A stretch of DNA of 64,000 nucleotides from Deltaproteobacteria bacterium (lineage in GTDB: Bacteria > Myxococcota > UBA727 > VGSZ01): contig JACOUT010000005.1 of the NCBI GenBank assembly GCA_016177705.1, positions 30,374 to 94,373 on the forward strand. The letters run 5' to 3'. Shown piece by piece: positions 483 through 49,281 of the stretch. A program made the position numbers and the translations under genes. Numbering within the stretch: position 1 is the first letter of the stretch; the number at the start of each line of letters is the position of its first letter. Under the pieces are notes generated by a model that was not told the DNA's origin, searched no databases, and saw only the letters and a program-made list of their open reading frames with translations.

Positions 483-954
483 CCGACGGCTGGCGCGACC
501 GGACGCGCTTTCCAAGCGCCTGCGTCGTCCCGCGCGCGACGTCGCCGCCCCCGGCGATGACGAGAAGGAAGGGCAAGCGGCTGAGCGTGCTGCAGGACGC
601 CGGATCACGGGTGGACGGGCCGGGCGTGAGCGCGTGGGCTCGGATGTGACCGCGCAAGCGAGCGCATGGGTGCTCGGACGTCCGAATCGGCTCCGCCGTG
701 AAATTGAACACCCACGTTCACGTCGCCACCGCCGACGGCGTGCTCGTGCGCGGCGCCGAAGGTCGCGCCGCGCTGTTGCGTCTCCCGGCACCCGATGACG
801 ACGACAGTGACTCGCATGTCGTTTCGAGAGGTGTCCACCAAACCGGGTCAATTTCATACCAGCGCGACGTACCCGTCGAACGCCGACGCCGGCAGATCAG
901 GCTTTGGACGTGTTCGCTTTGCGGGAGGCGGTACGCCACGCCTTGGCGCGTGTG

Positions 955-2208: not shown

Positions 2209-2280
2209 GCGTCCCGCATAGCGCGCCGGCGTAGCGAGCCCAACCTGCTACCGTGTGGCAACCCTCTGGTGGAGGAGCTC

Positions 2281-4857
2281 ATGCGCCGGTTCGTGCTCGC
2301 GCTCGCCCTGGTTGTCCTCGTCGTGCCCGCCTGCTCGTGTGACACGCCGGCGTCGATCGACGACGCGGGCACTTCCGACGACGGAGGCGCGCGCGATGGG
2401 GGCGCGGACGCGGACGCGGGCGAGCAGCAGGATGGGGGCGGCGATCTCGACGCGGGAGCTGACGACGACGCGGGTGGCGGCGGGGAGGACGCTGGCCCCA
2501 CCGACGCGGGGCCGACCGCGCCCGTCATCGCGCAGTTCACGGCGACACCGTCGACGGTCGACCTGCAGGCGCCGACCTCCGTCACGTGGAGCTGGAGCTA
2601 CGCGACGCTGCCCTCGCCGACGCCGAGCTGCACCATCGATCAGGGCGTCGGCGCCGCCGCCAGTGGCGCCAGCACGCAGGTGACGCTGCTCGGCGACACG
2701 ACCTTCACGCTCACCTGCGCCAGCTCGGCGGGCAGTGACACGGCGACGGCGCAGGTCGGCACCGCGATCCGGTCATGGACGCAGGTGTCCGCTGGCTCCC
2801 TGCACGCGTGCGGCCTCAAGGGCGCGGGCGAGCTGTTCTGCTGGGGCGACAACGCGAACGGCGCGCTCGGCACCGGCACCTTCGACGACGGCATCTACCC
2901 GTTGCGGGTGGGGCTCGCCGCAGACTGGACCTCGATCGCCGCCGGCACCGGGCATAGCTGCGGCATCCGCGGCGGTGAGCTGTACTGCTGGGGCGCCAAC
3001 ACGCACGGCAAGCTCGGCGTCGGCATCGCCGTGGGCGTCCCCACCTGGGTGCCGCTGCGGGTTGGCGGCGACAGCGACTGGACCAGCGTCACGGCCGGTG
3101 AGAATCACACGTGCGGTATCAAGGGCGGTGGCGAGCTGTGGTGTTGGGGCATGAATTGGTTCGGGCAGCTCGGCGACAGCTCCATCGGCACGCAGGAGGA
3201 CAAGGACGTGCCGGTGCGTGCGGGCGGCGACAGCGACTGGACGAGCGTGGTCGCCAGTACCTGGCATACCTGCGGCACCAAGGGCACAGGCGAGCTGTAC
3301 TGCTGGGGCTTCAACAGTTTCGGCCAGATCGGCGACAACTCGACCAGCCACAAGAGCGTGCCCACGCAGGTCGGCGTCGACGCGGATTGGCGCGCCGCGG
3401 CGGCCGGCGGCGACATGAGCTGCGCTGTCAAGGGCGCGGGCGAGCTGTTCTGCTGGGGCACGGGCGAGCTCGGTGACGGCGCCACCTACCTCTCGCGCGT
3501 GCCACTACGCGTCGGCAGCGCGACGGACTGGAGCCGCGTGGCGGCCGCCCCGACGCACATCTGTGGCGTGAGGGGCGTAGGCGAGCTGTACTGCTGGGGC
3601 GGCAATAACTCCGGGCAGCTCGGCGACGACAGCGTCGCGCTCCGCCGCACGCCGACGCGCGTGGGCAGCCTCGACACATGGAGCCAGGTCGACGTCGGCT
3701 ACCAGCTTAGCTGCGGCATCCACGACGGTGAGCTCGACTGCTGGGGCAACAACGGCGAGGGACAACTCGGCCTCGACACGCCGGGCTACGCGACCGCCCC
3801 TGAGCGCGTCGGCGTCGACAGCGACTGGAGCGCGGTGGCCGCCGGTGCGCGCTTCACCTGCGGCGTGAAGAGCGGCGAGCTGTGGTGCTGGGGTGAAAAC
3901 GCGGCGGGTCAGCTCGGCTCGGGCGATCGCGTGCCACTCGCCGAGCCGGCGCGCGTTGGCGCCGCCAGCGATTGGGCGTCGGTGTCGGCAGGCGCGCTCA
4001 CGGCTTGCGCCGTCACCACGCAGCGCGAGCTGTGGTGTTGGGGCGACAACGGCTTCGGCCAGGGTGGCGTGGGCTCGCCGGGGCCGCTGCTCGTGCCGAC
4101 GCGCGTCGGCACCGACAGCGACTGGACCGCGGTGGGCGTCGGTCTGTGGGTGAGCTGCGGCGTCAAGGGCGTCGGCGAGCTGTACTGCTGGGGCAGCGCG
4201 AGCAACGGCGCGCTCGGTGACGGCACCGACGTGAACAAGCCCTCGCCCACGCGCATCGGCAGCGACGACGACTGGATCGAGGTCGTGGGTGGCGGGCACT
4301 GGTTCATGTGCGGGCGTCGCGCCGGCGGCGAGGCGTTCTGCTGGGGCAACGGCGCCTTCGGACAGGTCGGCGATGGCAGCACGCAGCAGCGCAACGTGCC
4401 GACGGCCCTCGACACCGCCAAGCTGTTCTCGTCGCTGGCGGCGGGGCAGGCGCACGCGTGCGGCACCACCACCGACGGCGAGCTGTACTGCTGGGGCGCG
4501 AACGCGGGCATCGGCGCGTCGGGCAACGCCATCCCTGCCCAGAGCCCCGTGCCGGTCGGCCTCGAGACCGACTGGGGCGTGCTCGGCGCCGGCTCCGGCT
4601 TCACCTGCGGCCTGCGTGGCCCCGGCGCGCTCTACTGCCGCGGCGCCAACGACTACGGTCAGCTCGGCACCGGCAGCCGCGATGCCGCGGTCTACGCCGT
4701 GCGCGTGGGGCTCGGCGACGATTGGCAGGACGTCGCCGCCGGCACGTTGCACGCGTGCGGCGTCCGCGCGGGCGCGCTCTTTTGTTGGGGCTCGGACGCC
4801 TCGGGTCAGCTCGGCGTTGGCCGCGGCTGGGTGCAGGTGCCGTCGCGCGTGTGGTGA
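2281..4857 (+). CDS. RCC1-repeat (beta-propeller) lipoprotein with Asp/Gly-rich N-terminal linker
   Basis: Internal ATG at 2281 gives signal peptide + lipobox 'LVVPACSC'; upstream 82 codons of the ORF are R/G-rich junk. At least 14 repeats of the 'GEL(Y/W)CWG.N..GQLG' RCC1 blade signature. Confidence 0.8.
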   Translation: MRRFVLALALVVLVVPACSCDTPASIDDAGTSDDGGARDGGADADAGEQQDGGGDLDAGADDDAGGGGEDAGPTDAGPTAPVIAQFTATPSTVDLQAPTSVTWSWSYATLPSPTPSCTIDQGVGAAASGASTQVTLLGDTTFTLTCASSAGSDTATAQVGTAIRSWTQVSAGSLHACGLKGAGELFCWGDNANGALGTGTFDDGIYPLRVGLAADWTSIAAGTGHSCGIRGGELYCWGANTHGKLGVGIAVGVPTWVPLRVGGDSDWTSVTAGENHTCGIKGGGELWCWGMNWFGQLGDSSIGTQEDKDVPVRAGGDSDWTSVVASTWHTCGTKGTGELYCWGFNSFGQIGDNSTSHKSVPTQVGVDADWRAAAAGGDMSCAVKGAGELFCWGTGELGDGATYLSRVPLRVGSATDWSRVAAAPTHICGVRGVGELYCWGGNNSGQLGDDSVALRRTPTRVGSLDTWSQVDVGYQLSCGIHDGELDCWGNNGEGQLGLDTPGYATAPERVGVDSDWSAVAAGARFTCGVKSGELWCWGENAAGQLGSGDRVPLAEPARVGAASDWASVSAGALTACAVTTQRELWCWGDNGFGQGGVGSPGPLLVPTRVGTDSDWTAVGVGLWVSCGVKGVGELYCWGSASNGALGDGTDVNKPSPTRIGSDDDWIEVVGGGHWFMCGRRAGGEAFCWGNGAFGQVGDGSTQQRNVPTALDTAKLFSSLAAGQAHACGTTTDGELYCWGANAGIGASGNAIPAQSPVPVGLETDWGVLGAGSGFTCGLRGPGALYCRGANDYGQLGTGSRDAAVYAVRVGLGDDWQDVAAGTLHACGVRAGALFCWGSDASGQLGVGRGWVQVPSRVW

Positions 4858-8262: not shown

Positions 8263-10737
8263 CTACTCGGGGTCCACGGTAAACGTCCAGCTGGTCGTGA
8301 CCGACCACCCCGGGCCTTGCATGGTCACGGTGTCGCTCAGGTTGGTCAGGTCCCCTGCGGCGGTGCCTTCGCCGGCGATGTCGTCGATCGCGAGCACTAC
8401 GGCCTCCTCGAGTGGATCGTCGACGTTGGTGGCGCAGGTGTCCAGCGTGCCGAGGAACTCGTAGCGGGCCGTGAAGGCGCCCCGCCTCGTGCCGTCGACG
8501 GTCGTGCCCACGCTGGGCTCGACGCCGTAGCCGTTGTCCTCGGGGTCGTGGCCGAACAGAAAGGTACCGCCGGTCACCGACCCGCTGCCTTGCGTCGTCT
8601 CATGGGTCTCGAGCGTCTCGTGGTAGGTGCATTCCCCGCTGCCCAGGTCGGTGTTGCGCTCCACGTAGTCGTAGGTCTCGTCATAGGACGCGGTGCCACC
8701 GGTGACCAGGAACTCCTTGGCGTAGGCCGTGCTCGAGACCAGGCGCAGCGAGTAGCTCACCTGCTGCGTGCGTACGGTCCGGCTCGTCGCCGTCGAGGTC
8801 GCGGTCACGACCGACGACTCGTTCTCGTCGCGCCGGGTCGCCGTATAGCTGCCCAAGCGAACGCTCGTCGACGTCGCGTCAGCGAGCTCGAAGCGATAGC
8901 TCGGCGTCAGCACGGTCTCCACGAAGGCGACGAAGTTGCCCGGGATGGTGCCGGTCTCCGAGGCAGTCCAGCGCAGATTGAAGTCGGTCTGTCCTGGCGA
9001 CGCTTGCACCTCGTTCGCCAACTGCAGGTTGCCGCCGACGCGTCGATAGAGGCGTACGACCGTGACGTTGTAGCCGATGACCGGGAACACCGTGCTGCCA
9101 GGATCGAGCTTGACCTCGAAGGTGACCTCGTCGGCGGGCTCGAAGGCCTCGCGATCCGCAGTGACGCTGGTGGCCACGGGGGAGCTGGCGAGCGGGTGCT
9201 TGAGCTCGAGCGCGAGCGAGAAGACGTTGACGTGCATCGAACCGAGGAAGGCGGCGAAGTCGCGGCCCGCCTCGGCGCTGGCGAACAACGACAGCTGATA
9301 GTCGCCCTTGAAGTCGACATCAGCGGCCTGGCTCTGGTCGGGCGCCAGCACGGCGTCGAGCTCGATCCCCGCCTTGCACTCGATGGCGCGCACGCGCCAG
9401 CGGCGCCAGAAGCGCGCGCCTCCTTCGATGTCGGCGAACACGAACGCCGACAATTGCGCCTCGACGGTCAGGTCGGTCGAGGGCAGGCTCGCCGGGTAGA
9501 CGGGCTTGGCCTTGCCCGTGGCGACGCCGTCGAGCTCGGTCACCGCCTCGCAGTCCGGATCGCAGATGAAGCCGACGCGCGCGTTGACGCCGACCTCGCT
9601 GGTGGCTTCGAGTCCGACGTCAGCGAACGGGATCTCGCCCGCCAGCTCGAAGCCCGCGCCGAGCGGCACGGTGGCGCCGACGACGAACCCGATCACGCCC
9701 GGCACGCCGATGTAGAGCTTGGCCAGCTCGAGCTTGCACGTCACGGAGCCCGCCAGGGCCACGCCGGCCACCGGTGTGACCTCGAGGGTGGCGCGCGGCT
9801 CGCCGACCAGCAGCATCTTCTTCAGCTGGTCGTTCCAGGTGATCTCGTAGGAGAGGCCGGTGGTGATGGTGAGGTTCGACGTGAGCAGGTTGATCTCCAC
9901 GGCGGAGAGGTCGGCCTCACACGCAAAGGGGCCGAGCGGGAACTCGGCGGCGTAGGCGTTCGAGATCGGCGCCTCGCGCGGCGTGAACCGCAACGAGCCG
10001 TCCGGCAAGCGCTCCCACGTGAAGGCCTGCTGCACCTCGACCGGCACCTCGAACGGCGCGCGCGAGAGGTCGAGCGTTGCGTCGATGTCGAGCGAGGCGA
10101 ACAGCTCGTCGAGCGGCACCAGCTCGAGCGTGACGCGCGCGCCGTCGACCGCCACCACGCGACCGCTGACCAGCTTGTCGCCGGTGCCGAGCAGCAGCGT
10201 GCCCACCGCCGGTGGCGACACGCCGGTGAGCGTGATCGCGTAGCGCGAGCCCACGTGCGGCGCCTCGTCCGGCAGCTCCGGCTCGAAGCCGTCGATCACG
10301 TCGTCGTCGTTGATGACGACGGCGCCCGCGGCGGGCACTGCCGCGACAGCGAGCACCTCGCCGGTGAGCATGGTGCCGTCGGCGCTGGTGACGGTGGCGG
10401 TGATGAGCGCGCTGCCGGCCTCGACGAGCGCGCTGACCGTGCCTTGCTCGTCGACGGCGACCACGTCCGGCTTCGCCGAGGCCCACTGCACGGCGGCCTC
10501 GAGCTCCGTGCCGGCCGCGTCGAGCAGGCGCGCGCGCAGCTCTTGGCTGGGCATCGAGGGTGTGAGCAGCACGCCGCTCGGCGTGATGACGACGCTGATG
10601 GGCGGCCCGGGCGGCGTTTCGCCTTCCCCTTCGCCCTCACCCTCGGCGGGGCCGGGCGGTGGCTCGACGCAGGCGACACCGGCGAGCGCGAGCGAAAGGG
10701 CGGCGGGCAGAAGCGCGGAGGTTAATCGACCGATCAT
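8263..10737 (-). CDS. large secreted lipoprotein with a short (GE)n tract, otherwise uncharacterised
   Basis: Internal ATG at 10737 gives 'MIGRLTSALLPAALSLALAGVACVEPPPGPAEGEGEGEGETPPGPP'. The 824 aa frame has balanced composition, unlike the antisense frame 8122..10725. Confidence 0.7.
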   Translation of the reverse strand: MIGRLTSALLPAALSLALAGVACVEPPPGPAEGEGEGEGETPPGPPISVVITPSGVLLTPSMPSQELRARLLDAAGTELEAAVQWASAKPDVVAVDEQGTVSALVEAGSALITATVTSADGTMLTGEVLAVAAVPAAGAVVINDDDVIDGFEPELPDEAPHVGSRYAITLTGVSPPAVGTLLLGTGDKLVSGRVVAVDGARVTLELVPLDELFASLDIDATLDLSRAPFEVPVEVQQAFTWERLPDGSLRFTPREAPISNAYAAEFPLGPFACEADLSAVEINLLTSNLTITTGLSYEITWNDQLKKMLLVGEPRATLEVTPVAGVALAGSVTCKLELAKLYIGVPGVIGFVVGATVPLGAGFELAGEIPFADVGLEATSEVGVNARVGFICDPDCEAVTELDGVATGKAKPVYPASLPSTDLTVEAQLSAFVFADIEGGARFWRRWRVRAIECKAGIELDAVLAPDQSQAADVDFKGDYQLSLFASAEAGRDFAAFLGSMHVNVFSLALELKHPLASSPVATSVTADREAFEPADEVTFEVKLDPGSTVFPVIGYNVTVVRLYRRVGGNLQLANEVQASPGQTDFNLRWTASETGTIPGNFVAFVETVLTPSYRFELADATSTSVRLGSYTATRRDENESSVVTATSTATSRTVRTQQVSYSLRLVSSTAYAKEFLVTGGTASYDETYDYVERNTDLGSGECTYHETLETHETTQGSGSVTGGTFLFGHDPEDNGYGVEPSVGTTVDGTRRGAFTARYEFLGTLDTCATNVDDPLEEAVVLAIDDIAGEGTAAGDLTNLSDTVTMQGPGWSVTTSWTFTVDPE

Positions 10738-22578: not shown

Positions 22579-23246
22579 GGCTCGCCTCCGGCGGCGACGC
22601 CGACGATGACACCGCCGGCGATGGCGAGCAGCACCCCCGCGCCGGCGCCGACGGCGCTCACCTGCCCGACGGCGCGCAGCGCGCCGCGCTCGGCGCCCGG
22701 TCGCGTCGGATCGGCGAGCGCGCTCTCGGCGTAGGCGAGCCCGCCCGCGCCGCCGACGAGCACCACCGCGCCCGCCCCCGCCACCACCGCGCCCGCCACC
22801 ACCGCAGTCGACGGCCCGTCCTGCTGCGCAGGCGGGACCGGCGCCGGCAGCGCCTCCGGGCGCGGCAGAGCAGGGGCTTGCGCGGCGCGCTCCGCCTCCA
22901 CCTCCTGCCGCACGCTCGCGAAGAACAGCGCCACCTTGGGCGGCGCGTCGGCGTCGAGCGTGGTCTCGGGCGCGCGCAGCAGCACGTAGCGGAAGTTGAT
23001 GCGAGCCTCCAGGTCGCGCCCGAGGATGCGGTGCGCGATGCCGGCGAGCAGGTTGGCGCGCAGCTTCTCGTCGTCGCTGGCCTCGGGAGCGGTGGCCGCG
23101 CGCATCAGCTCGTCCGCCGCGATCTCGTAGTCGAGCGCCGCCATCGCCGCTTCGCCTCGGGCGAGGTGTTGGGCGGGGGTGACGGGCGCGGCGACGGCGA
23201 CGAGCGCGGCGAGCAGCAGCACGGTGGCAGCATACCGTGCGCGCAT
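22575..23246 (-). CDS. module partner (copy 3): signal peptide, TPR-like helical domain, Pro/Ala linker, double Gly/Ala-zipper tail
   Basis: ATG at 23246: 'MRARYAATVLLLAALVAVAAPVTPAQ'. Tail 'VVAGAVVAGAGAVVLVGGAGGLAYAE...VSAVGAGAGVLLAIAGGVIVGVAAGGEP'. Confidence 0.6.
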   Translation of the reverse strand: MRARYAATVLLLAALVAVAAPVTPAQHLARGEAAMAALDYEIAADELMRAATAPEASDDEKLRANLLAGIAHRILGRDLEARINFRYVLLRAPETTLDADAPPKVALFFASVRQEVEAERAAQAPALPRPEALPAPVPPAQQDGPSTAVVAGAVVAGAGAVVLVGGAGGLAYAESALADPTRPGAERGALRAVGQVSAVGAGAGVLLAIAGGVIVGVAAGGEP

Positions 23247-23362
23247 GATCCGGGCGGGGTTGTCGCAGGCGGTGCAGGTGCGCATCCTGGCTCGATGTCC
23301 TTGCGCGAAGACGTGGCGCTGCCGGAGCCGGTGCGGGACGCCCTCGACCGTGCGAGGATGCC

Positions 23363-24790
23363 GTGGTGAGCGCCGCGCGCACCGCCACCGAGACGCGCAC
23401 CTCGACGCGTCCGTCGACCGGCACCTCCACCGGCACTGAGGCGCGTCGCGCGCCCGACATCGTCGCGGGCGTGGTCGACGCCGACAAGCTGGCCGACGAG
23501 ATCGCGGCTACCTCGGTCGACCCGCGCCTGTGGACCGGCGCCTTCGCCACCAACGTCTGGGGCGGCCGCTTCGCCGTCGACGGCGTGCTCGGCGAGGGCG
23601 CGCAGGGCACCACCTTCCAAGGCACCGACCTCAAGACCGGTGGCCGCGTCGCCATCAAGGTCTTCGACGTTGGCCGCGCCAAGGACTGGAAAGCGGTGCA
23701 GCTCTTCGACCGCGAGGCCGAGACGCTCAAGAGCGTCGATCACCCGGGCATCCCCAAGCTGCTCGACGTCATCGTCGACGAGGAGACCGGCGCGCGCGCG
23801 CTGGTGCGCACGCTGGTGCCGGGCGAGAGCCTGGCCGCCGAGATCAAGAGCAAGGGGCCGCTCGCCGAGGCGGCGTTGTGGAGCGTGATCATCGACGTCA
23901 CCGACGTGCTCGGCGCGCTGCACGGCCGCTCCTCGCCCATCGTGCACCGGGACATCAAGCCGGCGAACCTGATCCGCCGGCCCGACGGCAAGGTGTGTCT
24001 GGTCGACTTCGGCGGCGTCGGCAGGATGCGCGAGGCGGCCGGCTCCACGGTGGTCGGCACCTTCGGCTACATGGCGCCCGAGCAGCTCTATGGCGCGCAG
24101 ACGCCGGCCACGGACATGTACGCGTTCGGCGCCACGCTGCTGATGCTCGCAACCGGCCGAGAGCCCGAGGAGCTGCCAAGGAGCGGCCTGTCGCTCGACG
24201 TCGACCAGGCGGCGCCCAAGCTGTCGCCCCAGTTGCGCGCGCTCGTGAAGAAGCTGACCGCGCCCGACCCGAGCGGCCGTCCGGCCGACGCCAAGGCGCT
24301 GCTCGCGGAGCTGCACGCCATCGCTGACGCCAAGGACCGTCCGGCCGTCGAGCCGAGCTGGCCGGAGCCGATGGTCGACAGCCCGTTCGCCGCGCGCGGC
24401 GTCGAGGGCGACTTCCTGGTGGGAATCGTCGGCCTGGTGTTCGGCGTGCTCGGCGTGGTCGGTGCCGTCATCGTCGGGCAGCTGCTCATCCCGCTCGTGC
24501 TCACCATCATCGCCGCCACCGCCGACGGCGCGCAGAAGGAGCGCATCCTGGCGGCGCGCGCGCGCGTCGTCGAGGCGGCGACGTTGGCGCAGCGCTCCTT
24601 CGAGCGCTCGGCGCAGCACGGCGCCAAGAAGCTCGAGAGCGCCTCCGAGCGCGAGCGCGAGCGCGCCGAGGATCGCCGCCGTCGCCGGCGTGAGCTCAAG
24701 CGCCACTGGAAGGAAGAGGAGCGACGCCTCAAGCAGCTCGCCAAGGACGCCAAGCGCTCGGCACGGCGCGACGGTAGGTTCTGGGTGTAG
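23363..24790 (+). CDS. Hanks-type Ser/Thr protein kinase with C-terminal TM helix and coiled coil
   Basis: 'VAIKVF', '[10 protein letters not shown]', 'DFG', 'GTFGYMAPE'; TM '[34 protein letters not shown]'. Confidence 0.85.
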
Positions 24791-24859
24791 CCCTTTCTGG
24801 TCTGAGCACGCCCGCGCCGGGGCTTGTGCGCCCAGCGCGCGTGGGGCAAGAGGAACGCG

Positions 24860-25591
24860 ATGAAGTGGTCGACGATCGCCGCGCTGATGTTCAAGCACCG
24901 CGTGGCCTTCCTGCTCGTGTGGGTGGTGTGTTGGGTCGGCTGCGATCAGGCGAGCAAGATCTGGGCGCAGGGCGCGCTCGCGGAGCAGCGCGAGGTGGTC
25001 AGGCCCAAGGAAGTGGTGGCGCCTGACGGCACCAGCACGCGCACCGAGGAGCGCGTCACCCAGTTCTTCGCCAAGCGCACCATCACGCTGCACGAAAACG
25101 GCCTGTTCGGCCTCGGCTTCAAGTACGCCGAGAACCGCGCCGCTGCCTTCTCGCTCACCGAGTCGATCCCCGAGGGCGCGCGCCGGCCGCTGTTGTTGCT
25201 CGTCAGCGTCGCGGCGTGTGCGCTGATCGCCGTGTGGTACCTGCGCCTCAAGGTGGTCGACGGGCTTCTGATGCTCTCGTTCGCGCTCATCATCGGCGGC
25301 GCGCTCGGCAACTTCTTCGACCGGCTGCGGCTCAGCTACGTCATCGACTTCCTCGACATGTACCTGACCGGGCCGGGCGCGGTCGCCTGGCTGCGCGCGC
25401 CGCACTCGCTGTTCGGCATCGGCTTCCGCCTGTCCGACCACTGGCCGACGTACAACGTCGCCGACGTCGGCATCGTGTCGGGCGCCATCGGGGTCTTGCT
25501 GCGCACCTTCAAGCCGCTGCCGGGCACCTCGACCGACAGCGCCGTCGAGCCGAGCCCGCCGGCGCCCGCACCCGCCAAAGAGGCCGCCTGA
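24860..25591 (+). CDS. lspA: lipoprotein signal peptidase (signal peptidase II)
   Basis: 'GGALGNFFDRLRLSYVIDFL', 'WPTYNVADVGI' LspA motifs; 4 TM segments. Confidence 0.85.
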   Translation: MKWSTIAALMFKHRVAFLLVWVVCWVGCDQASKIWAQGALAEQREVVRPKEVVAPDGTSTRTEERVTQFFAKRTITLHENGLFGLGFKYAENRAAAFSLTESIPEGARRPLLLLVSVAACALIAVWYLRLKVVDGLLMLSFALIIGGALGNFFDRLRLSYVIDFLDMYLTGPGAVAWLRAPHSLFGIGFRLSDHWPTYNVADVGIVSGAIGVLLRTFKPLPGTSTDSAVEPSPPAPAPAKEAA

Positions 25592-25875
25592 TGTACCTGG
25601 CGCGCGTCATCGGCACCGTGGTCGCCACCAAGAAGGCCGACCACATGACCGGCCTCAAGCTGTTGGTGGTCGAGCCCGTCGACCGGGCCAACAAGCCGAA
25701 CGGCGAGATTCATGTCGCGGTCGACGTGGCGCAGGCCGGCGAGGGTGACCTGGTCACCTGCGTCGGCTCGCGCGAGGCGGCGCTGGCCATCGAGCCCTCC
25801 TTCGTGCCGGTCGACGCCGCCATCGTCGGCATCGTCGACCAGACCGACTGGGTGGCCGACCGGGTGCGCGCATGA
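25591..25875 (+). CDS. bacterial microcompartment vertex protein BMC-P (EutN/CcmL/PduN family, PF03319)
   Basis: 94 aa 'MYLARVIGTVVATKK...LKLLVVEPV...VAVDVAQAGEGDLV'; SD 'aagagg'; start overlaps the lspA stop (TGATG). Confidence 0.85.
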   Translation: MYLARVIGTVVATKKADHMTGLKLLVVEPVDRANKPNGEIHVAVDVAQAGEGDLVTCVGSREAALAIEPSFVPVDAAIVGIVDQTDWVADRVRA

Positions 25876-26231
25876 TCCTGTGCGACGTGGTCGGCACGGT
25901 GGTGATGACCGTGAAGCACCCGGCGCTCGCCGGCGAGAAGGTGCTGTGCTGTCAGCCGCTCGACGACGCCAAGGAGCCGGCCGGCGCCGTCATCCTGGCC
26001 GTCGATCGCGCGCAGGCCGGCGTGGGCGACCGCGTGCTGGTGATGCGCGAGGGCAACGGCGTGCGCCAGATCATCGGCCGCGAGCAGGGCAAGCCGCTCG
26101 ACGAGGCCGTCAAGATGGATTGGCCGGTGCGCTCGATGGTGGTGGGTGTGGTCGACCGTGTCGATGTCGCGCCGCGCGGTGCTTCGGTCGGCGGTGCTTC
26201 GCTCGGTAGGGCGCGCGACGCCAAGGCGTGA
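25872..26231 (+). CDS. second BMC-P (EutN/CcmL family) paralog with ~25 aa C-terminal extension
   Basis: '[16 protein letters not shown]...KVLCCQPLD...[17 protein letters not shown]'; ATGA overlap with the preceding gene. Confidence 0.8.
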
Positions 26232-26235
26232 CGAC

Positions 26236-26901
26236 GTGAGCGAGCCGCACAAGCGCCTGCTTGCCGAGGTGTCGCGCCGCATGCACGCCGCCGGCTGGGT
26301 CGCCAACCACGACGGCAACGCCTCGGCGCGCCTGGCCGACGGCAAGCGCTTCCTGGCCACGCCCACGGCCGTCTCCAAGCGACTGGTCGACGCGCACGAG
26401 GTGCTCACCGTCGACGTCGAGGGCAAGGTGCTGTCCGGTCGGAAGCGCCTGTTCTCGGAGTGGCACCTGCACGCCGCCGCCTACCGCGCACGCCCCGACG
26501 CCGGTGCCGTGCTGCACGCGCACCCGCCGCACGCGACCGCCGTCGGCGTGGCGCGCAAGCAGCTCGGCGTGCCGGCGCTGCCCGAGATGGTGGTGAGCCT
26601 CGGCGCCAACGTGCCGACGCTCGACTTCGCGATGCCGAAGAGCGCGTCGCAGGACACCGCCATCGCGCGCGCGCTTTGCGAGGGTGACGCCGACGCGCTC
26701 CTGCTGGCCGGCAACGGCGTGCTGGTGGTCGGCGTCGACCTCGAGCAGGCGTACCTACGCCTGGAGCTGGTCGAGCACTACGCGCGCATCCTGGTGGCGG
26801 CCGCTGCCCTCGGCGGGCCAGCGCCGCTGCCGGCTGACGACGTCAAGAAGCTGCTCGAAGCGCGCACCAAGGCGGGGCTCGGCCGAGCGGCACGGCAGTA
26901 G
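26236..26901 (+). CDS. class II aldolase/adducin-family protein (fuculose/rhamnulose-phosphate aldolase-like)
   Basis: GTG 5 nt after the BMC-P stop; '[11 protein letters not shown]', '[10 protein letters not shown]' metal-binding His pair typical of class II aldolases. Confidence 0.8.
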
Positions 26902-26910
26902 CCCAAGAGC

Positions 26911-28704
26911 TCACGGTGGCGAGCAGGAGCCGTCGATGCGGCAGAGGCCGCCGCCGCACTCGAGGTCCGAAGCGCACCGGTCGAGCACGGCGCCGAAGAT
27001 CTCGGACGCGCGCGCCGCGTCTTGTGCGCGCACCTCGAGCACCAGCCCGTCCCCGCGCACGCAGCCGCACTCGGTGCAGGCCGCCGGGTCGAGCGCGCCC
27101 TCGTGGTCGAGCGACACCGCCGCGAGCTGGTGGCTGGCGAGCGCCCAGGAGAGCACGCCGAGCAGCTCGTCGAGGGAGCCCGGCTCGCCCTGGTAGCCTG
27201 CCTCCTGCCAGGGGTTGGCGCACACGGTCGGCGCCACGCGGAACAGCACGCTGGTTGGGCAGGGCGCGTCGACCAGCATCTCGGTGGCGTTGCCGCACTC
27301 GTCGCGCAGGTCGCAGGAGAGGTGCACGTCGCCGTTGACCGGGTCGCCGGCGGTCGCTGTCTGCGCGCACTGCCGGCAGCTCGCCACCGCCGGCCCGTTG
27401 TCGAGCGTCAGCGACGTGCCGTTGACATCGGCGAGCGCGAAGGCACCGAGCACGGAGCAGCTCTCGCCGTTGCAGCTCGAGTAGATGGGGGCGCCGGTCG
27501 AGGGGTCGTAGCAGATCTCGCAGCCGGCCGTGCCGTCGGCGCCGGGCAGCGTCTCACACGAGGGCGGCGGCGCGCCGCCGCAGTCGCGGTACACCTCCAC
27601 GCCGGTACCGAGGTCGTAGCAGACCGTGCACCGCTGCGTTGGGTCGAGCAGCTCCTCGCACGCGAGCGTCGGCTCGCCGATGCACTGCGTCTCGACGTAG
27701 CCGTCATCGGCCGGGCAGCTCCGGCACAGGCTGCCGTCCTCGGCGTACTCGAACCAGCAGGGCTCGGCCGGCGCGCAAGCGTCGCCGGGAGCACAGTCGT
27801 TGCGCTCGCACGAGGTCGAGCTGACGCCGCCGTATTGGTCGAGGCAGACCACGCAGGTCTGGTCGGTGTAGGCGAGCACCTCGCACTGTTGCGGCGCTGG
27901 CACGTCGGGGCTGCAGCTTTGGTCGACCACGATGCCGTTGGCGTCGACGCAGGTGGTGCACCACAGGCCGTCGACGGTCACGCTCTCGACGCACGACACC
28001 GGCACGGTGGTGTCGGAGCAGCGGTGGCTCAACAGCACGTCGCCGCTCCAGCAGTCGACGCAGCGGCCGACGTCGTTGGCGTAGGCCTCGCACACCTCGG
28101 GATCGAGGCGGTCGTCGCCGGCGCCGGCGCAATCTTGCACCACCACCTCGTTGTCGCGCGTGCAAACCCGGCAGGTGGCGTCGCCGAGCACCTCGGCGTG
28201 GCACTCGTCGCTTGCAGGCTCGCAGCGGTTCTCCACCACCACGCCGCGCTCGTCGCGGCAGACCGCGCACGCCATGTCCGCCGACACCGGGTCGTTCGGG
28301 TCGACGGGCGCGGGCTCGCACGCGAGGTCGCCCTGCGCGCCCGGCACGAAGCAGTCGTCGAACAACACCTCGCCCAGGTCGGTGGCGCAGTAGCGGCACT
28401 GCTGGCCGTCGGCGTCGAAGCGCAGCTCGCACTCGGCGACGGTCGGCTCGCCGCAGATGGTCACGTCGCCGCCGGCGGTCTGGCACGAGGCGCAGGTCTC
28501 GCCCTCGTTGCGCTCGACCGCGGTGCCGTCGCAGCCCGGGCTGGTGACCGCGCATGAGCCGTCCGCGCACGGGTCGCGCTCGGGCCCGCCGTCCTCCTCG
28601 CCGACGCATTGGGGCAAGGTGGGGTCGAAGAAGCAGTCGCAGCCGAGCGCCGTCGCCGCGCCGAGCACGGCGAGCAGGGAGCGCAGGAGCGAGCCGGGCG
28701 CCAT
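26911..28704 (-). CDS. secreted lipoprotein built from ~10 Cys-rich ~22-aa repeats (CxxC-x2-D/N-x2-G-x(5,7)-C)
   Basis: Lipobox 'LGAATALGCDC'; repeats 'QCRYCATDLGEVLFDDC', 'ACAVCRDERGVVVENRC', 'TCRVCTRDNEVVVQDC', 'RCVDCWSGDVLLSHRC', 'WCTTCVDANGIVVDQSC', 'TCVVCLDQYGGVSSTSC', 'LCRSCPADDGYVETQC', 'RCTVCYDLGTGVEVYRDC', 'GCEICYDPSTGAPIYSSC'. Confidence 0.7.
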   Translation of the reverse strand: MAPGSLLRSLLAVLGAATALGCDCFFDPTLPQCVGEEDGGPERDPCADGSCAVTSPGCDGTAVERNEGETCASCQTAGGDVTICGEPTVAECELRFDADGQQCRYCATDLGEVLFDDCFVPGAQGDLACEPAPVDPNDPVSADMACAVCRDERGVVVENRCEPASDECHAEVLGDATCRVCTRDNEVVVQDCAGAGDDRLDPEVCEAYANDVGRCVDCWSGDVLLSHRCSDTTVPVSCVESVTVDGLWCTTCVDANGIVVDQSCSPDVPAPQQCEVLAYTDQTCVVCLDQYGGVSSTSCERNDCAPGDACAPAEPCWFEYAEDGSLCRSCPADDGYVETQCIGEPTLACEELLDPTQRCTVCYDLGTGVEVYRDCGGAPPPSCETLPGADGTAGCEICYDPSTGAPIYSSCNGESCSVLGAFALADVNGTSLTLDNGPAVASCRQCAQTATAGDPVNGDVHLSCDLRDECGNATEMLVDAPCPTSVLFRVAPTVCANPWQEAGYQGEPGSLDELLGVLSWALASHQLAAVSLDHEGALDPAACTECGCVRGDGLVLEVRAQDAARASEIFGAVLDRCASDLECGGGLCRIDGSCSPP

Positions 28705-28876
28705 GCCAGGGTTTTAGCACCCTCCGTGCCAGCGGGCCGGCTTGGTGCCGGCGCGTCGGGACGCCACGATCCGTCGTCCGACCGACCTTGGCGCGGCGGC
28801 TGCGAGGTCGATGCCGCAGGTCCGTGCGATCTCGTCGTCGCGGGGACAGTGGGCCACATGGTACGACAGCCTACAG

Positions 28877-29644
28877 ATGCTACCTCTCGTCGTGGCGCTG
28901 GTTGTGGCGCAGGTCGACGCCGGCCCTGCCGACGCTGGACCTGTCGACGCCGGACAGCCGCCAACGGTCTGCGGCACGCTCAGCGCCGAGGGCGCGTGCT
29001 TCGGCGAGGTCGCCGCCTGGTGCAGCGAGGACAACACGGGCGGCGCCGCCGCCGCCGCCGATGTGCACGTCGAGGACTGCGCGGGCGGCGCCTGCGCCGT
29101 GCTCGACGACGTCGGCGCTTGGTGCTTCGCCGCGGACGGCGCGCGCTGCGCGTTCGCCGCGGGGGCCGGCGCCACCGCGCACGCCTGCGGGCCGGTGCAG
29201 GCCGCGCCCGACCCTGCCTGGGGCTGCGACCTCGTCGACGGCTGCGTGCCGCTCGCGACCGCCGGCTGCGGCGCGGGCTGCGTCGATGCCGAGCGCGTGC
29301 GCCTGGCCTGTTCGCCCTTCGGGCAGCCGGTGATGTTTCGCTGCGCGGGCTTCGGCGGCGCCTGCGTCGGTGAGGGCTGTGTCGACCTTGGCGTCGGCGC
29401 GCCCTGCGACGAGCGCTTCACCTGCGCCGCGGGCCTCGCGTGCATCGTCGGGGCGTGCGTGGCGGACCTGCCGGGCGCGCTCGTCGACGCTGGGCCGGGT
29501 GAGCCGCCGGCACCACCGGCACCGCCTCCCCTGTGCGGCGCCGGCGCCGTCACCTGCCTTGGGCCCGCGGCGCTCTTGCTCGTCGCTGTTCGCCGAGGCA
29601 GCCGGCGCGCGCGCACGACGTCACCGCCCTATCGGTTGACCTGA
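28877..29644 (+). CDS. Cys-rich secreted protein with MYXO-CTERM-like C-terminal sorting tail (array member 1)
   Basis: ATG at 28877 'MLPLVVALVVAQVDAGPADAGPVDAG'; C-terminus 'PPPLCGAGAVTCLGPAALLLVAVRRGSRRA'. Confidence 0.65.
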   Translation: MLPLVVALVVAQVDAGPADAGPVDAGQPPTVCGTLSAEGACFGEVAAWCSEDNTGGAAAAADVHVEDCAGGACAVLDDVGAWCFAADGARCAFAAGAGATAHACGPVQAAPDPAWGCDLVDGCVPLATAGCGAGCVDAERVRLACSPFGQPVMFRCAGFGGACVGEGCVDLGVGAPCDERFTCAAGLACIVGACVADLPGALVDAGPGEPPAPPAPPPLCGAGAVTCLGPAALLLVAVRRGSRRARTTSPPYRLT

Positions 29645-29816
29645 CAGCAGGCCCTGACAAGAGCGTCGCATCGGCCGGGTGTCCGACCGAGCGCGGCGCC
29701 GCCGGCCTTGCGCTCGTCGACGTGTCGGGTACGGTGCCAGGCGTCCCGGACCAACCGGGATCATGCCGGCTCGACCGGCCAGGAACCCGGCCGAACGGCC
29801 CCCCAGGAGAGGTCAC

Positions 29817-30650
29817 ATGCGGAACGTGCTGCTTTGTTGTTCGTTGGCGTTGGTTGCGTCGGGCGCGGCGTTCGCGCAGGGCGAGGGAGAGGGCGAGGGC
29901 GAGGCCTGCGGCGCCGTCACGCTCGAGGGCGAGTGCCAGGGCACGGACGCCGTGTGGTGCCAGGACAATGTCCTGCAGCGCGTGACCTGCGCGGATCTGC
30001 TGGGTGATGGCAGCGTGGTCGGCAGCTGCGAGGTCTACACCGGCTTCGGTTCGTGGTGCGCCTTCAACGACGGCGACCCGTGCGCGTTCCAGACCCAGGA
30101 CGGCAACGCCATCTACTTCGCTTGCGCCAACGACAGCTCGGGCTGCGTCGACGGTCAGTGCACGGCCGGCACTGGCGCCTGCACGCCCGACGCGGATCCG
30201 CAGAACCCCACCGTGACCTGCCTCGACGGCGGCAACCTTCAAATCGGCTGCCAGCCCTGGGCGCAGGCGTTCGTCTACACCTGCGCGGGCATCAGCGCCG
30301 CCTCCACCTGCGCCAACGACGTGTGCGGCAACGTCGGCTCGGGCGATCCGTGCGCTGACGGCATCGCCGAGTGCGGCGGCGGCCTCTCCTGCGGCGCCGA
30401 CAACACCTGCGGTGGCGGCGGCGAGGGCGAGGGCGAGCCCGCCGAAGGCGAAGGCGAGGGCGACAACGGTGAGTGCGCCAGCGACCGCGACTGCGACGAA
30501 GGCGAGATCTGCGACAACGGCGAGTGCACCGGCGGTGGCGAGCAGCCCCCGGTGTGCAGCCACACGGCCACGAGCGCCGGTCTGCCGGCGGCGGGCCTGT
30601 TGGCGCTCGGCGGTCTGGTGATCGGCGTGCGCCGTCGCCGTCGCGCCTGA
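29817..30650 (+). CDS. Cys-rich secreted protein with short (GE)n tracts and MYXO-CTERM-like tail (array member 2, paralog of 28877..29644)
   Basis: SD 'ggagag' then ATG 29817: 'MRNVLLCCSLALVASGAAFAQGEGEGEGEACGAVTLEGECQGTDAVWCQDN' (compare 'CGTLSAEGACFGEVAAWCSEDN'). C-terminus 'PPVCSHTATSAGLPAAGLLALGGLVIGVRRRRRA'. Confidence 0.7.
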   Translation: MRNVLLCCSLALVASGAAFAQGEGEGEGEACGAVTLEGECQGTDAVWCQDNVLQRVTCADLLGDGSVVGSCEVYTGFGSWCAFNDGDPCAFQTQDGNAIYFACANDSSGCVDGQCTAGTGACTPDADPQNPTVTCLDGGNLQIGCQPWAQAFVYTCAGISAASTCANDVCGNVGSGDPCADGIAECGGGLSCGADNTCGGGGEGEGEPAEGEGEGDNGECASDRDCDEGEICDNGECTGGGEQPPVCSHTATSAGLPAAGLLALGGLVIGVRRRRRA

Positions 30651-40008: not shown

Positions 40009-41322
40009 TCACTCCTCGATGGTCGTGTAGTGCTGCGGCCTCGGCGCCAACGATCCGGCACCGGCGCTGTACTGCTTCCAGCTCACGCTCGGCGCGCCGT
40101 TCTCCACCTTGCGCATGGTGATGCAGCCGGGCACCGGGCACACCAGGCTGCACAGGTTGCAGCCGACGCACATGTCCTCTTTGACCTCGACGAGGCGCTT
40201 GCCGTTCTTGGGCGCGAGCGCGAGCGCCTGGTGCGCGCCGTCTTCGCAGGCGATGAAGCACAGCTCGCAGCCGATGCACTTGTCCTCGTCGATGTGCGCG
40301 CGGATGAAGTGGTTGAGGTCGAGGTTCTCCCACTTCTGGATGCTCGGCACCGCCAGGCCCTGGAAATCCGTCAGACGTGTGTAGCCCTTCTCCGCCATCC
40401 AGTTGGCGAGCCCGTCGATCATGTCCTCGACGATGCGGAAGCCGTAGTGCATCACCGCCGTGCACACCTGCACGTTGGCGCAGCCGACCGCGATGAACTC
40501 GGCGGCGTCCTTCCAGGTGGAGATGCCGCCGATGCCGGAGATGGGCAGGCCCTTCAGCTCGGGGTCGGCGGCGATCGACGAGACGAAGTTGAGCGCGATC
40601 GGCTTGACCGCCGGGCCGCAGTAGCCGCCGTGGCTGCCCTTGCCGGCGACGTTGGGCCGCGGCGCCATCATGTCGAGGTCGACGCCCATCAGCGAGTTGA
40701 TGGTGTTGATGGCGCTGACCGCGTCGGTCTTGGCGCGCTTGGCCGCCTTCGCCGGGTAGGTAATGTCGGCAACGTTGGGCGTGAGCTTGGTGATGACCGG
40801 GATGGTGCTCACCTCTTTCACCCACTCGACGATCTGCTGGCAGTAATCGGGCACCTGACCGACGGCGGCGCCCATGCCGCGCTCGCTCATGCCGTGCGGG
40901 CAGCCGAAGTTCAGCTCGAAGCCGTCGCAGCCGGTCTCGCCATGGGTGCGCTTGACGATCTCGTGCCACACCTCGCGCTTGCTCTCGACCATCAGGGACG
41001 CGATCAAGGAGTGCTTGGGGTAGCGCTTCTTGATGAGCTTCATCTCCCGCAGGTTGTCCTCGATCGGGCGGTCGGTGATCAGCTCGATGTTGTTCAAGCC
41101 GATCAGCTTCTGCGTGCCGGAGTCGATGCCGCCATAGCGCGAGTAGACGTTGACGATGGGCTGGCCGATGGTCTTCCACACCGCGCCACCCCAGCCGCAA
41201 TCGAACGCGCGCGCCACCTGTCCGTAGGTGTTGGTGGGCGGCGCCGAGGCGAGCCAGAACGGGTTGGGCGAGACGATACCCGCGAGGTTGGCGGTGAGAT
41301 CGACGTTGCTGGCAGCGGCCAT
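40009..41322 (-). CDS. preA: NAD-dependent dihydropyrimidine dehydrogenase subunit PreA (DHOD-like FMN domain plus two 4Fe-4S ferredoxin motifs)
   Basis: 'GFELNFGCPHGM', 'CIGCELCFIACEDGAHQA', 'CVGCNLCSLVCPVPGCI'. Confidence 0.9.
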   Translation of the reverse strand: MAAASNVDLTANLAGIVSPNPFWLASAPPTNTYGQVARAFDCGWGGAVWKTIGQPIVNVYSRYGGIDSGTQKLIGLNNIELITDRPIEDNLREMKLIKKRYPKHSLIASLMVESKREVWHEIVKRTHGETGCDGFELNFGCPHGMSERGMGAAVGQVPDYCQQIVEWVKEVSTIPVITKLTPNVADITYPAKAAKRAKTDAVSAINTINSLMGVDLDMMAPRPNVAGKGSHGGYCGPAVKPIALNFVSSIAADPELKGLPISGIGGISTWKDAAEFIAVGCANVQVCTAVMHYGFRIVEDMIDGLANWMAEKGYTRLTDFQGLAVPSIQKWENLDLNHFIRAHIDEDKCIGCELCFIACEDGAHQALALAPKNGKRLVEVKEDMCVGCNLCSLVCPVPGCITMRKVENGAPSVSWKQYSAGAGSLAPRPQHYTTIEE

Positions 41323-41324
41323 GA

Positions 41325-42683
41325 TCAGTGCCCCCTCAGGAAGGTCGAGATGGCGGCGGCGGCGCGCTTGCCGTCGGCGGCGGCGTTGACGATCTCTTTG
41401 CCGCCGTTGACGCAGTCGCCGCCGGCAAAGACCTTGGCGTTGCCGGTGCGTCCAACCTCATCGATGACCACGCGACCGGCGCCGTCGAGCTGCACGCCGG
41501 ACACGCCGCGCAACAGCTCGACCCGCTTGGTCTGCCCGAGCGCCTTGATGACCAAGTCGCAAGGGAGCACGTGCTCGCTGCCGGCGACGGCGCTGACGCC
41601 GCGGCGGCCGCTCGCGTCCGGCGCGCCGAGCGCCATCTTCACGCACGTGAGGCCGGTGACCCGTCCGCCGTCGGCCACGACCTCGACCGGCGCGGTCAGC
41701 CAGTGGAATTCGCAGCCGCTCGCGCGCGCGAGCGCGATCTCGAAGTCGTAGGCCGGCGCCTCGTCTTCCGAGCGCCGATAGACGAAGGCGACGGACGCAG
41801 CGCCGAGCCGCTTGGCCTGCGTGGCGGCGTCGACGGCGGTGTTGCCGCCGCCGATGACCAGCACGCGCGTCGGCGGCGTGAAGGTGCCGTACGGACGCGT
41901 CTTGAGCTGCTCGATGAAGGAGAGCGCGTCGACCACGCCGGCATGTCCCTCGCCCGCGATGCCGAGCGACTGAGTGGCGCCGAGCCCGACCCCGAGGAAG
42001 ACCGCGTCGAAGTCGCGCTCGAGCTGGGCGAACGACAGGTCCGTGCCGACCGTGACGCCGGTGCGTAGCTCGACGCCGAGGTCGAGGATGGTCTTGGCTT
42101 CGGCGAGCGCGGTGTCCGGGCGCAGCTTGTATTGGGCGATGCCGAAGGTGTTGAGGCCGCCGGGTTGCTTGCGCGAGTCGAACATCACCACCGCGTGTCC
42201 CGCGCGGCGCAGCTCCTGCGCACAGGCGAGGCCGGCGGGGCCCGCGCCGACGACCGCGACCTTCTTGCCGGTCGAGGCGCCGGGCGCGAACAGCTTCCAG
42301 CCCTTGGCCAGCACGGCGTCGGTAGCGTGGCGCTGCAGTCGGCCGATGGCGACCGGCCGGCGCTCGGACTGGTTCATCACGCAGGAGCCCTCGCACAAGA
42401 CCTCGACGGGGCAGGCGCGCGCGCACGAGTGGCCGAGCGGGTTGGCATCGAGGATGACGCGCGCGGCACCCTTGAGGTTGTCGTTGGCGATCTTCTTGAT
42501 GAAGGACGGCACGTCGATGTGCGTGGGGCACGCGATGGTGCAGGGCGCGTCGTAGCAGTAGAGGCAGCGCGCCGACTCGGCCACGGCTTCGCTGTCGGTG
42601 AGCGCGGGGTGCAGCTCGGCGAAATTGTGCGCGATGTCGGCAGCAGAGAGCGGCGCGCCGGCGCCGGCGGTGCGGAGACTCAT
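41325..42683 (-). CDS. preT: dihydropyrimidine dehydrogenase subunit PreT (GltD-like NAD(P)H oxidoreductase)
   Basis: 'CLYCYDAPCTIACPTHIDV', 'VAVVGAGPAGLACA', 'VLVIGGGNTAVD'; 2-nt gap to preA. Confidence 0.9.
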   Translation of the reverse strand: MSLRTAGAGAPLSAADIAHNFAELHPALTDSEAVAESARCLYCYDAPCTIACPTHIDVPSFIKKIANDNLKGAARVILDANPLGHSCARACPVEVLCEGSCVMNQSERRPVAIGRLQRHATDAVLAKGWKLFAPGASTGKKVAVVGAGPAGLACAQELRRAGHAVVMFDSRKQPGGLNTFGIAQYKLRPDTALAEAKTILDLGVELRTGVTVGTDLSFAQLERDFDAVFLGVGLGATQSLGIAGEGHAGVVDALSFIEQLKTRPYGTFTPPTRVLVIGGGNTAVDAATQAKRLGAASVAFVYRRSEDEAPAYDFEIALARASGCEFHWLTAPVEVVADGGRVTGLTCVKMALGAPDASGRRGVSAVAGSEHVLPCDLVIKALGQTKRVELLRGVSGVQLDGAGRVVIDEVGRTGNAKVFAGGDCVNGGKEIVNAAADGKRAAAAISTFLRGH

Positions 42684-49209: not shown

Positions 49210-49281
49210 GGAAGCACCTCGGCGCAGAGGTGACTCCAAAAGCGAAGGCCGCGCAATCAGGCGCGACCGGCGCGACGCGCG

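Follow-up and report, generated by a model that had tools for sequence, protein, structure and literature searches.

Why should two genes for vertex proteins of a bacterial microcompartment (BMC) lie between a lipoprotein signal peptidase gene and a class II aldolase gene, with no other shell gene in sight? The question is raised by positions 24860 to 26901 of a 64,000-nucleotide stretch of DNA, here called the window (assembly GCA_016177705.1, contig JACOUT010000005.1, positions 30,374 to 94,373 of the forward strand), which belongs to an uncultured Myxococcota metagenome-assembled genome (MAG) and has about 71% G+C throughout. The genes in question are lspA, two EutN/CcmL-family pentamer genes, which we call BMC-P1 and BMC-P2 (P1 and P2 for short), and the aldolase gene. 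We consider it likely that this region is a satellite locus of an HO-type (type I, Haliangium-type) microcompartment, and that its link with lspA is a case of operon hitch-hiking. The genes of the string are as follows (aa, amino acids; +, forward strand):

23363-24790, +: Ser/Thr protein kinase (NCBIfam kinase-domain matches, e.g. PknB-like, E 1e-38)
24860 (ATG) to 25589-25591 (TGA), +: lspA, lipoprotein signal peptidase II, 243 aa (PF01252, 98.8 bits; MBI1946012.1)
25591 (ATG) to 25873-25875 (TGA), +: BMC-P1, EutN/CcmL-family pentamer (vertex) protein, 94 aa (PF03319, 94.6 bits, E 5e-27)
25872 (ATG) to 26229-26231 (TGA), +: BMC-P2, second and divergent BMC-P paralogue, 119 aa (PF03319, 72.2 bits, E 5e-20)
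26157-26228, +: C-terminal Gly/Ala/Arg-rich tail of BMC-P2, 24 aa, variable and predicted to be disordered
26236 (GTG) to 26901 (TAG), +: class II (FucA-like) aldolase, 221 aa (PF00596, 142 bits; MBI1946015.1)

The arrangement of a BMC-P pair and an aldolase is already catalogued as the satellite of HO microcompartments of type I, and is thus not new; it is described in the 'Satellite loci' section and in Supplementary Data 2 of Sutter et al. 2021 (Nat Commun 12:3809, PMC8217296). That catalogue holds 41 loci of the HO type, mostly from Deltaproteobacteria. The main loci of type I, that of Haliangium ochraceum included, encode shell proteins and an aldehyde dehydrogenase (AldDh) only, while the PF00596 aldolase is on a satellite locus for 24 of the 30 type I loci, and a BMC-P triplet is present in all HO loci. 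By the definition used there, a locus is an HO satellite if its genome also has a main locus. The window has two adjacent BMC-P genes and a PF00596 aldolase gene, distal from any BMC-H gene within the window, and its host is a Myxococcota/Deltaproteobacteria MAG with orthology to the satellites of Haliangium relatives. The original prediction, made from the window sequence before any database search, of a myxobacterial (Haliangium-type) satellite with a tandem BMC-P pair therefore matches the published type.

Both pentamer genes score far above the PF03319 cutoff of 25 bits, and so the reading of two tandem BMC-P genes between lspA and a class II aldolase, which had been staked on this threshold, stands. 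BMC-P1 is a compact BMC-P, assigned to its family by sequence, which matches GrpN (PDB 4i7a, E 1.7e-13) and the H. ochraceum-type HO BMC-P (5v74, E 4.4e-10) among solved structures; its orthologues, with 49-90% identity, occupy the same position in most related loci. BMC-P2 is more divergent, with CcmL (2qw7, E 6.9e-8) as its best solved relative. It has 899 homologues at E<=1e-5, with PF03319 found in 120 of 120 among the matches listed, and the few homologues that carry a taxon name are from Deltaproteobacteria or Myxococcota. The AlphaFold2 model of BMC-P2 (mean predicted local distance difference test score, pLDDT, of 85) has the BMC-P fold, an OB-like β-barrel, and was aligned by Foldseek with CcmL, EutN, GrpN and HO BMC-P at template modelling (TM) scores of 0.75-0.87 (target TM of 0.77 for CcmL 4jw0, E 2.7e-7; 0.87 for GrpN 4i7a; 0.75 for HO BMC-P 5v74). 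A helical insertion at residues ~61-79, which is modelled as two confident helices (residues 61-71 and 76-79), is conserved in the homologue alignment A1.

The PF03319 domain of BMC-P2 covers residues 1-95, and the remaining 24 residues form a tail that is predicted to be disordered from about residue 101 (pLDDT ~50). A C-terminal extension of 25 aa had been proposed for this protein; the extension exists, with 24 aa, as a variable disordered tail and not as a conserved feature. Among 120 homologues, the segment that follows the last strand has a median length of 13 aa (range 4-37), a median net charge of 0 and no conserved sequence, and the tail in the window has a net charge of +3. It also contains a 5-aa tandem duplication that is missing from the 96%-identical homologue P0001, which indicates that the tail is evolving fast by slippage. 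As BMC-P2 begins with MILC, it was also considered as a substrate of LspA; this was rejected, because the protein has no signal peptide and Cys4 is replaced by Ala in most homologues.

To place the locus, we scanned the GTDB species representatives, which gave 80 related loci, or 85 with the contigs added from metagenome look-ups (L numbers denote loci compared in this work). P1, P2 and the aldolase are encoded in the same order and on the same strand in 76 of the 85, mostly from Myxococcota, and the loci with this triad carry the labels Kofleriaceae, Archangiaceae, Myxococcaceae, Polyangiales, Nannocystaceae and Bradymonadia. Syntenic orthologues from Kofleriaceae-labelled loci are 59-71% (P1), 46-52% (P2) and 49-53% (aldolase) identical to the window proteins. 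For H. ochraceum itself, we provisionally take Hoch_4425/4426 to be the satellite BMC-P pair. Loci of Planctomycetota have the gene order P-P-P-aldolase (L065, L071, L074, L083-L087). BMC-H or BMC-T genes are nearby in just one surveyed locus, L031. This is a main locus of the SPU type, which encodes BMC-H, two BMC-P, PduS, BMC-T, AldDh, a P1-like/P2-like pair, RpiB, DeoC and PTA. Besides clade-specific neighbours, no other gene recurs next to the triad across the 85 loci. From the published catalogue, together with orthology and synteny with the catalogued loci, we infer that the window carries the satellite of a complete HO microcompartment, in which P1 and P2 would close the vertices of a shell whose genes lie elsewhere in the genome.

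The window itself encodes no other shell protein. The absence of BMC-H and BMC-T genes from the 64 kb, part of the original prediction, was confirmed in three ways: the strongest tblastn match to PduA, HO BMC-H or CcmK2 had E 0.038; an ad hoc BMC-H profile, made from PduA, CcmK2 and 60 HO-type BMC-H sequences, matched the six-frame open reading frames (ORFs) of at least 40 aa with E 1.7 at best; and Pfam scans of 30 further window ORFs contained no BMC domain (PF00936), aldehyde dehydrogenase (PF00171), PduL (PF06130) or DeoC (PF01791). A BMC-P profile run across the window ORFs matched BMC-P1 and BMC-P2 only. A third BMC-P candidate at 62512-62703 (tblastn E 0.024) was discarded as spurious, since it lies within a 482-aa ORF to which the BMC-P profile gives no match. 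This ORF (61642-63090, +) has a FliN/SpoA-like C-terminus, of the kind found in type III secretion or flagellar switch proteins.

The lack of any hexamer or trimer gene in 64 kb is what would be expected if P1, P2 and the aldolase worked without a full shell, either as a pentamer-aldolase complex or as the remnant of a lost microcompartment. Such a reading is also favoured by the main locus not having been found for this MAG, and by an aldolase that has neither an encapsulation peptide (EP) nor one of its Zn ligands (see below). We judge it rather improbable, because the published satellites are defined by a main locus in the same genome, and because purifying selection evidently acts on each of the three genes, whose ORFs are intact and 57-90% identical across the clade. 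Main loci of the HO type are, in addition, abundant in the protein collection: a search for homologues of HO BMC-H gave 7,978 matches within a very narrow score range, that is, about 8,000 close relatives, and one canonical type I main locus was retrieved on the metagenome contig L090, with BMC-Tdp, BMC-H, BMC-P, AldDh and BMC-T.

Is the aldolase then a cargo enzyme? It had been suggested that its N- or C-terminus might carry an EP, which was not borne out. In an alignment with E. coli FucA, which has 215 aa, residues 17-208 of the window enzyme match residues 18-204, and since the two proteins are co-linear at both ends, the window aldolase has no extra N- or C-terminal segment relative to FucA and is not EP-tagged cargo. 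The 69 complete orthologues extracted from the related loci fall into two length classes. The short class (212-227 aa) includes the whole window clade, and 17 of the 69 have at least 251 aa. The long aldolases that we inspected (251-286 aa; L038, L039, L047, L056, L057, L059 and L070 from Kofleriaceae, and also L024-L026, L049, L052, L073 and L081) have a C-terminal extension of 45-60 aa that ends in an amphipathic helix, as in LEDVVREEIVRALRGS and MEQIVEEEITRALKQG. These extensions are likely encapsulation peptides. The presence of an EP on HO aldolases appears to be associated with lineage, as it is seen in Kofleriaceae-labelled and several other loci and is absent in the window clade. The proportion of long orthologues is in line with the published catalogue, in which about a third of HO aldolases carry an EP (Sutter et al. 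2021, Supplementary Data 2, PMC8217296).

The metal site of the aldolase is also unusual. Glu73, His92 and His94 (FucA numbering) are invariant in all 69 orthologues, whereas Asn takes the place of the third Zn ligand of FucA, His155, in the window aldolase and in 43 of the 69; the other 26, which include all Kofleriaceae- and Planctomycetota-labelled loci, have His. The window enzyme therefore does not have the complete Zn site of FucA (His92/His94/His155 and Glu73), and this pattern points to a modified metal site in the majority of the aldolases linked to HO microcompartments. None of the NCBIfam equivalog cutoffs was passed, the best model being that of ribulose-1-phosphate aldolase (104 bits against a cutoff of 300), with the FucA equivalog models at 73.6-88.8 bits against cutoffs of 264-400. 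For most HO-associated aldolases, the Asn at the position of the third Zn ligand calls into question a conventional identity as a Zn-dependent fuculose- or rhamnulose-phosphate aldolase. An EP-less aldolase with Asn in place of His155 is, in itself, a minor lead on the function of HO microcompartments.

If the aldolase does not enter the shell by means of an EP, it could be recruited via the two special BMC-P paralogues, or work together with them. The conservation of the triad in 76 of 85 loci, with genes that usually overlap or nearly abut, would agree with such a role, as would the restriction of EP-like tails to roughly a quarter to a third of the orthologues. Any such interaction is conjectural, and the three genes do not always travel together: the aldolase stays with P2 alone, P1 being absent, in L010-L016, and the P1-P2 pair is found without an aldolase in several loci, e.g. 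L023, L027, L036 and L058. For these reasons we regard recruitment through the pentamers as unlikely, and retain the HO satellite with a shell encoded elsewhere.

We turn to the other partner of the string. The window LspA passes the PF01252 cutoff easily (98.8 bits against 25) and that of TIGR00077 marginally (74.3 bits against 73.95). Its motifs GNFFDR and YNVAD align with GNLYDR and FNLAD of Pseudomonas aeruginosa LspA (5dir/9emz), in which we take the catalytic Asp dyad to be Asp124/Asp143 (P. aeruginosa numbering), and it has two insertions relative to that enzyme. Judged by these features of its sequence, LspA looks functional.

The apparent co-translation of lspA with BMC-P genes had been described as odd and not noted before. 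The same tight gene string was indeed found, but not as a one-off: (kinase-)LspA-P1-P2-aldolase is a conserved operon of one clade, present in 13 loci (the window, L001/L003, L004, L006, L008, L009, L017-L020, L098 and, apparently, L096). The text and supplements of Sutter et al. 2021 (PMC8217296) contain neither the word 'peptidase' nor, in the form of an accession, the Pfam number 01252. L096 is a frameshifted long-read contig, in which the gene caller gives, at 651-3692, a 389-aa 'LspA' and a 622-aa fusion of EutN and Aldolase_II; we do not accept these fusions as real, because frame changes in tblastn point to probable long-read frameshift artefacts. In the eleven loci that were measured, window included, identity to the window proteins is 41-85% for LspA, 57-90% for P1, 58-90% for P2 and 69-83% for the aldolase, and ten of them have an lspA-P1 spacing between -1 and +32 nt, with one of 429 nt in L019. 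In L017 (8466-9718), two tandem lspA paralogues, with 33% and 45% identity to the window LspA, are directly upstream of P1-P2-aldolase.

The kinase gene is immediately upstream of lspA in most of the lspA-linked loci, at a distance of 54-117 nt in L001, L006, L008, L009, L018 and L020 and of 196 nt in L004 (with the start as called in this analysis), and L001, L006 and L098 also encode SecA, a few genes upstream. The window kinase has a membrane anchor and a charged C-terminus; its exact start codon is uncertain, and the transcription unit may begin with its gene. In several lineages, Ser/Thr kinases are also encoded beside main loci of the HO type and beside P-P-aldolase satellites (L090, 12120-13478; L091, 4392-6307, with FHA; L039/L047/L056/L057/L070, ~8760-9830, minus strand). 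These have about 30% kinase-domain identity to the window kinase, and the adjacency may be due to chance. Myxobacteria are rich in kinases.

The lspA linkage appears to have arisen once and is confined to one clade, where it is a genuine conserved operon. Tblastn at 1e-4 found no lspA in the flanks of more than 60 other P1-P2-aldolase loci, and the sister LspAs, with 43-46% identity, are in the context Pkinase(-)/AMP-binding/LspA, with no BMC-P. The absence of the link from more than 60 triads argues for lineage-specific hitch-hiking over a general functional link. We see no biochemical rationale for a functional connection between LspA and BMC-P, as BMC-P proteins are cytosolic and the three downstream proteins have no signal peptide or conserved lipobox.

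Within the clade, the tenacity of the link could nevertheless be taken to mean that lspA and BMC-P1 are a selected functional unit, with a role at the envelope, as a membrane tether, or in keeping P1 at a fixed low stoichiometry with LspA. The adjacency of -1 to +32 nt is kept while LspA falls to 41-47% identity, a GAGG motif is contained in the 3' end of lspA, and the stop and start codons overlap. Moreover, one MAG, GCA_023248635.1, keeps lspA-P1 alone, with a 14-nt gap and among new flanking genes (JAHFED010000001.1, L097, 5001-6058; P1 72% identical to that of the window), and has P2-aldolase alone on another contig, after an unannotated ORF of ~500 aa (JAHFED010000039.1, L014, 10001-11061). 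The functional unit is countered by the apparently single evolutionary origin of the link, by its absence from the other triads and from the sister LspAs, by the cytosolic nature of the proteins and by the gap of 429 nt in L019; dependence on the lspA promoter alone can explain the retention. We therefore consider a selected lspA-P1 unit very unlikely. The joint reading, in which lspA-P1 is such a unit and the EP-less His155->Asn aldolase acts through, or is recruited to, the special BMC-P paralogues, also seems improbable to us. If either were true, it would give the first functional handle on the BMC-P triplets and on the role of HO microcompartments.

The junctions between the four genes were determined exactly. 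The genes correspond to the NCBI proteins MBI1946012.1-MBI1946015.1, with identical start codons by exact-sequence look-up, on a contig of 362,168 bp in a MAG that bears the name 'Deltaproteobacteria bacterium', and this instance is correctly annotated by NCBI. The MAG comes from groundwater (DNA runs SRR12113421 and SRR12113418). lspA and BMC-P1 overlap by 1 nt (TGATG) and BMC-P1 and BMC-P2 by 4 nt (ATGA), as originally read, whereas the gap between BMC-P2 and the aldolase, given as 5 nt, measures 4 nt (CGAC, 26232-26235). We did not find the tight junctions to be exceptional. Further 4-nt overlaps are present in the window at 56858/56861 and 58264/58267, and because overlapping junctions are common in the genome, tight packing alone is unremarkable. 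A Shine-Dalgarno-like GAGGA is upstream of the lspA ATG, and the BMC-P1 start is preceded by a Shine-Dalgarno-like GAGG that lies within the 3' coding end of lspA. To judge by this internal motif and by the TGATG overlap, translation of P1 may be coupled to that of lspA.

On the downstream side, a convergent Cys-rich ORF of 597 aa, with no Pfam match, ends 9 nt past the aldolase stop, and the unit therefore ends at the aldolase. L001/L003 encode a conserved counterpart of this protein, with 594 aa. The window has a run of such Cys-rich, apparently secreted proteins with no Pfam match (21037-~22500, minus strand; 26911-28704, minus strand; 28742-29644, plus strand; 29679-30650, plus strand), one of which is a β-helix with a long perfect (Glu-Gly)n repeat.

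These findings can be combined in the following mechanism. P1 and P2 would account for two members of the BMC-P triplet, which has three paralogues, and would cap the vertices of the shell. The aldolase, by analogy with PVM and GRM5 aldolases, would cleave a ketose-1-phosphate to dihydroxyacetone phosphate and a short aldehyde, and the aldehyde would be oxidized within the shell by the EP-bearing AldDh that the main locus, at another site in the genome, encodes. In this clade the three genes are very probably transcribed together with lspA, and probably with the upstream kinase gene as well. The triad would have landed behind the housekeeping gene lspA once, in the ancestor of the clade, and P1 would then have become dependent on lspA transcription and on translational coupling, and hence been kept in place. 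With hitch-hiking of this kind, LspA and the microcompartment would share no biochemical function, and the dependence of P1 on the expression signals of lspA would account for the lspA-P1 pair being the last to come apart. A shell requires no more than 12 pentamers, and a weakly expressed housekeeping operon is, as a speculation, a plausible supply of them.

Several observations weigh against an HO satellite with a hitch-hiking lspA link. The main locus with BMC-H, BMC-T, the third BMC-P and AldDh was not located for this MAG, as the BMC-H search was swamped by ~8,000 near-equivalents, and an accession look-up of 10 NCBI-sourced BMC-H clusters gave no MBI194xxxx accession. The aldolase does not have one of the three canonical Zn ligands and is below every NCBIfam equivalog cutoff. 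The survival of the lspA-P1 pair when P2-aldolase was split off in GCA_023248635.1 is more persistence than would be expected of an accidental neighbour. Co-transcription of kinase/lspA-P1-P2-aldolase is suggested by the spacing of the genes only, and a consensus scan of 23000-27300 found no promoter or terminator, a result that is uninformative in DNA with 71% GC. We still consider the satellite with a hitch-hiking link the likely explanation.

Among microcompartments, the HO organelle serves as the principal model for structural work, and its function is still called enigmatic. Vertex genes that ride on the lspA operon predict constitutive, low-level expression of these pentamers, uncoupled from the main locus. 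The lspA linkage is a clade-specific operon curiosity, and these points may be modestly useful to microcompartment specialists.

Elsewhere in the window, PreA/PreT-like dihydropyrimidine dehydrogenase subunits and a dihydropyrimidinase-like amidohydrolase are encoded at 40009-42683 and 47770-49239 (both minus strand). Together they make up a set for reductive pyrimidine catabolism, some 14 kb away from BMC-P1 and BMC-P2, which is of note in that HO microcompartments have been proposed to serve the catabolism of nucleic acids. In addition, a 940-aa protein with RCC1 repeats (PF25390, 377 bits) is encoded at 2035-4857 (plus strand).

The locus can finally be compared with the systems that it resembles. 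FucA (PDB 1fua/1dzw) belongs to the same fold family as the window aldolase, with 215 compared with 221 aa. Its residues Glu73, His92 and His94, as well as most of its phosphate-binding residues (Asn29, Thr43, Ser72), are kept in the window enzyme, whereas His155, Tyr113 and Tyr209 are replaced by Asn, Pro and Ala. In the aldolases of the P-P-P-aldolase loci of Planctomycetota, the third metal ligand is His, and not Asn as in the window. PVM/PVM-like and SPU loci, which according to the literature process fucose/rhamnose or deoxyribose-phosphate, have orthologous P1-like and P2-like paralogues side by side, as in the window; in the SPU-type L031, in contrast to the window, the BMC-P genes are inside a main locus with BMC-H/T, AldDh, PTA, RpiB and DeoC.

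A more distant parallel is found in the microcompartments of Archaea, which are reported to be derived from Myxococcota. The pentamers AMC-P2 of Hodarchaeales are reported to have DNA-binding, K/R-rich disordered tails of 36-137 aa, which were stated not to be observed in BMCs (bioRxiv 10.1101/2025.11.08.687404). Like BMC-P2 of the window, AMC-P2 is a vertex paralogue with a positively charged disordered extension, but the tail in the window has only 24 aa and is not conserved even in close relatives, and it recalls the archaeal tails weakly at best.

The closest system is the type I HO satellite. The window shares with it a tandem pair of BMC-P genes with a PF00596 aldolase gene behind it, and with no BMC-H or BMC-T gene nearby, as well as a host from Myxococcota/'Deltaproteobacteria', and its aldolase is without an EP, as are about two-thirds of HO aldolases. 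The difference is that the triad is joined to a unit of lspA, probably together with the kinase, in the window clade only.

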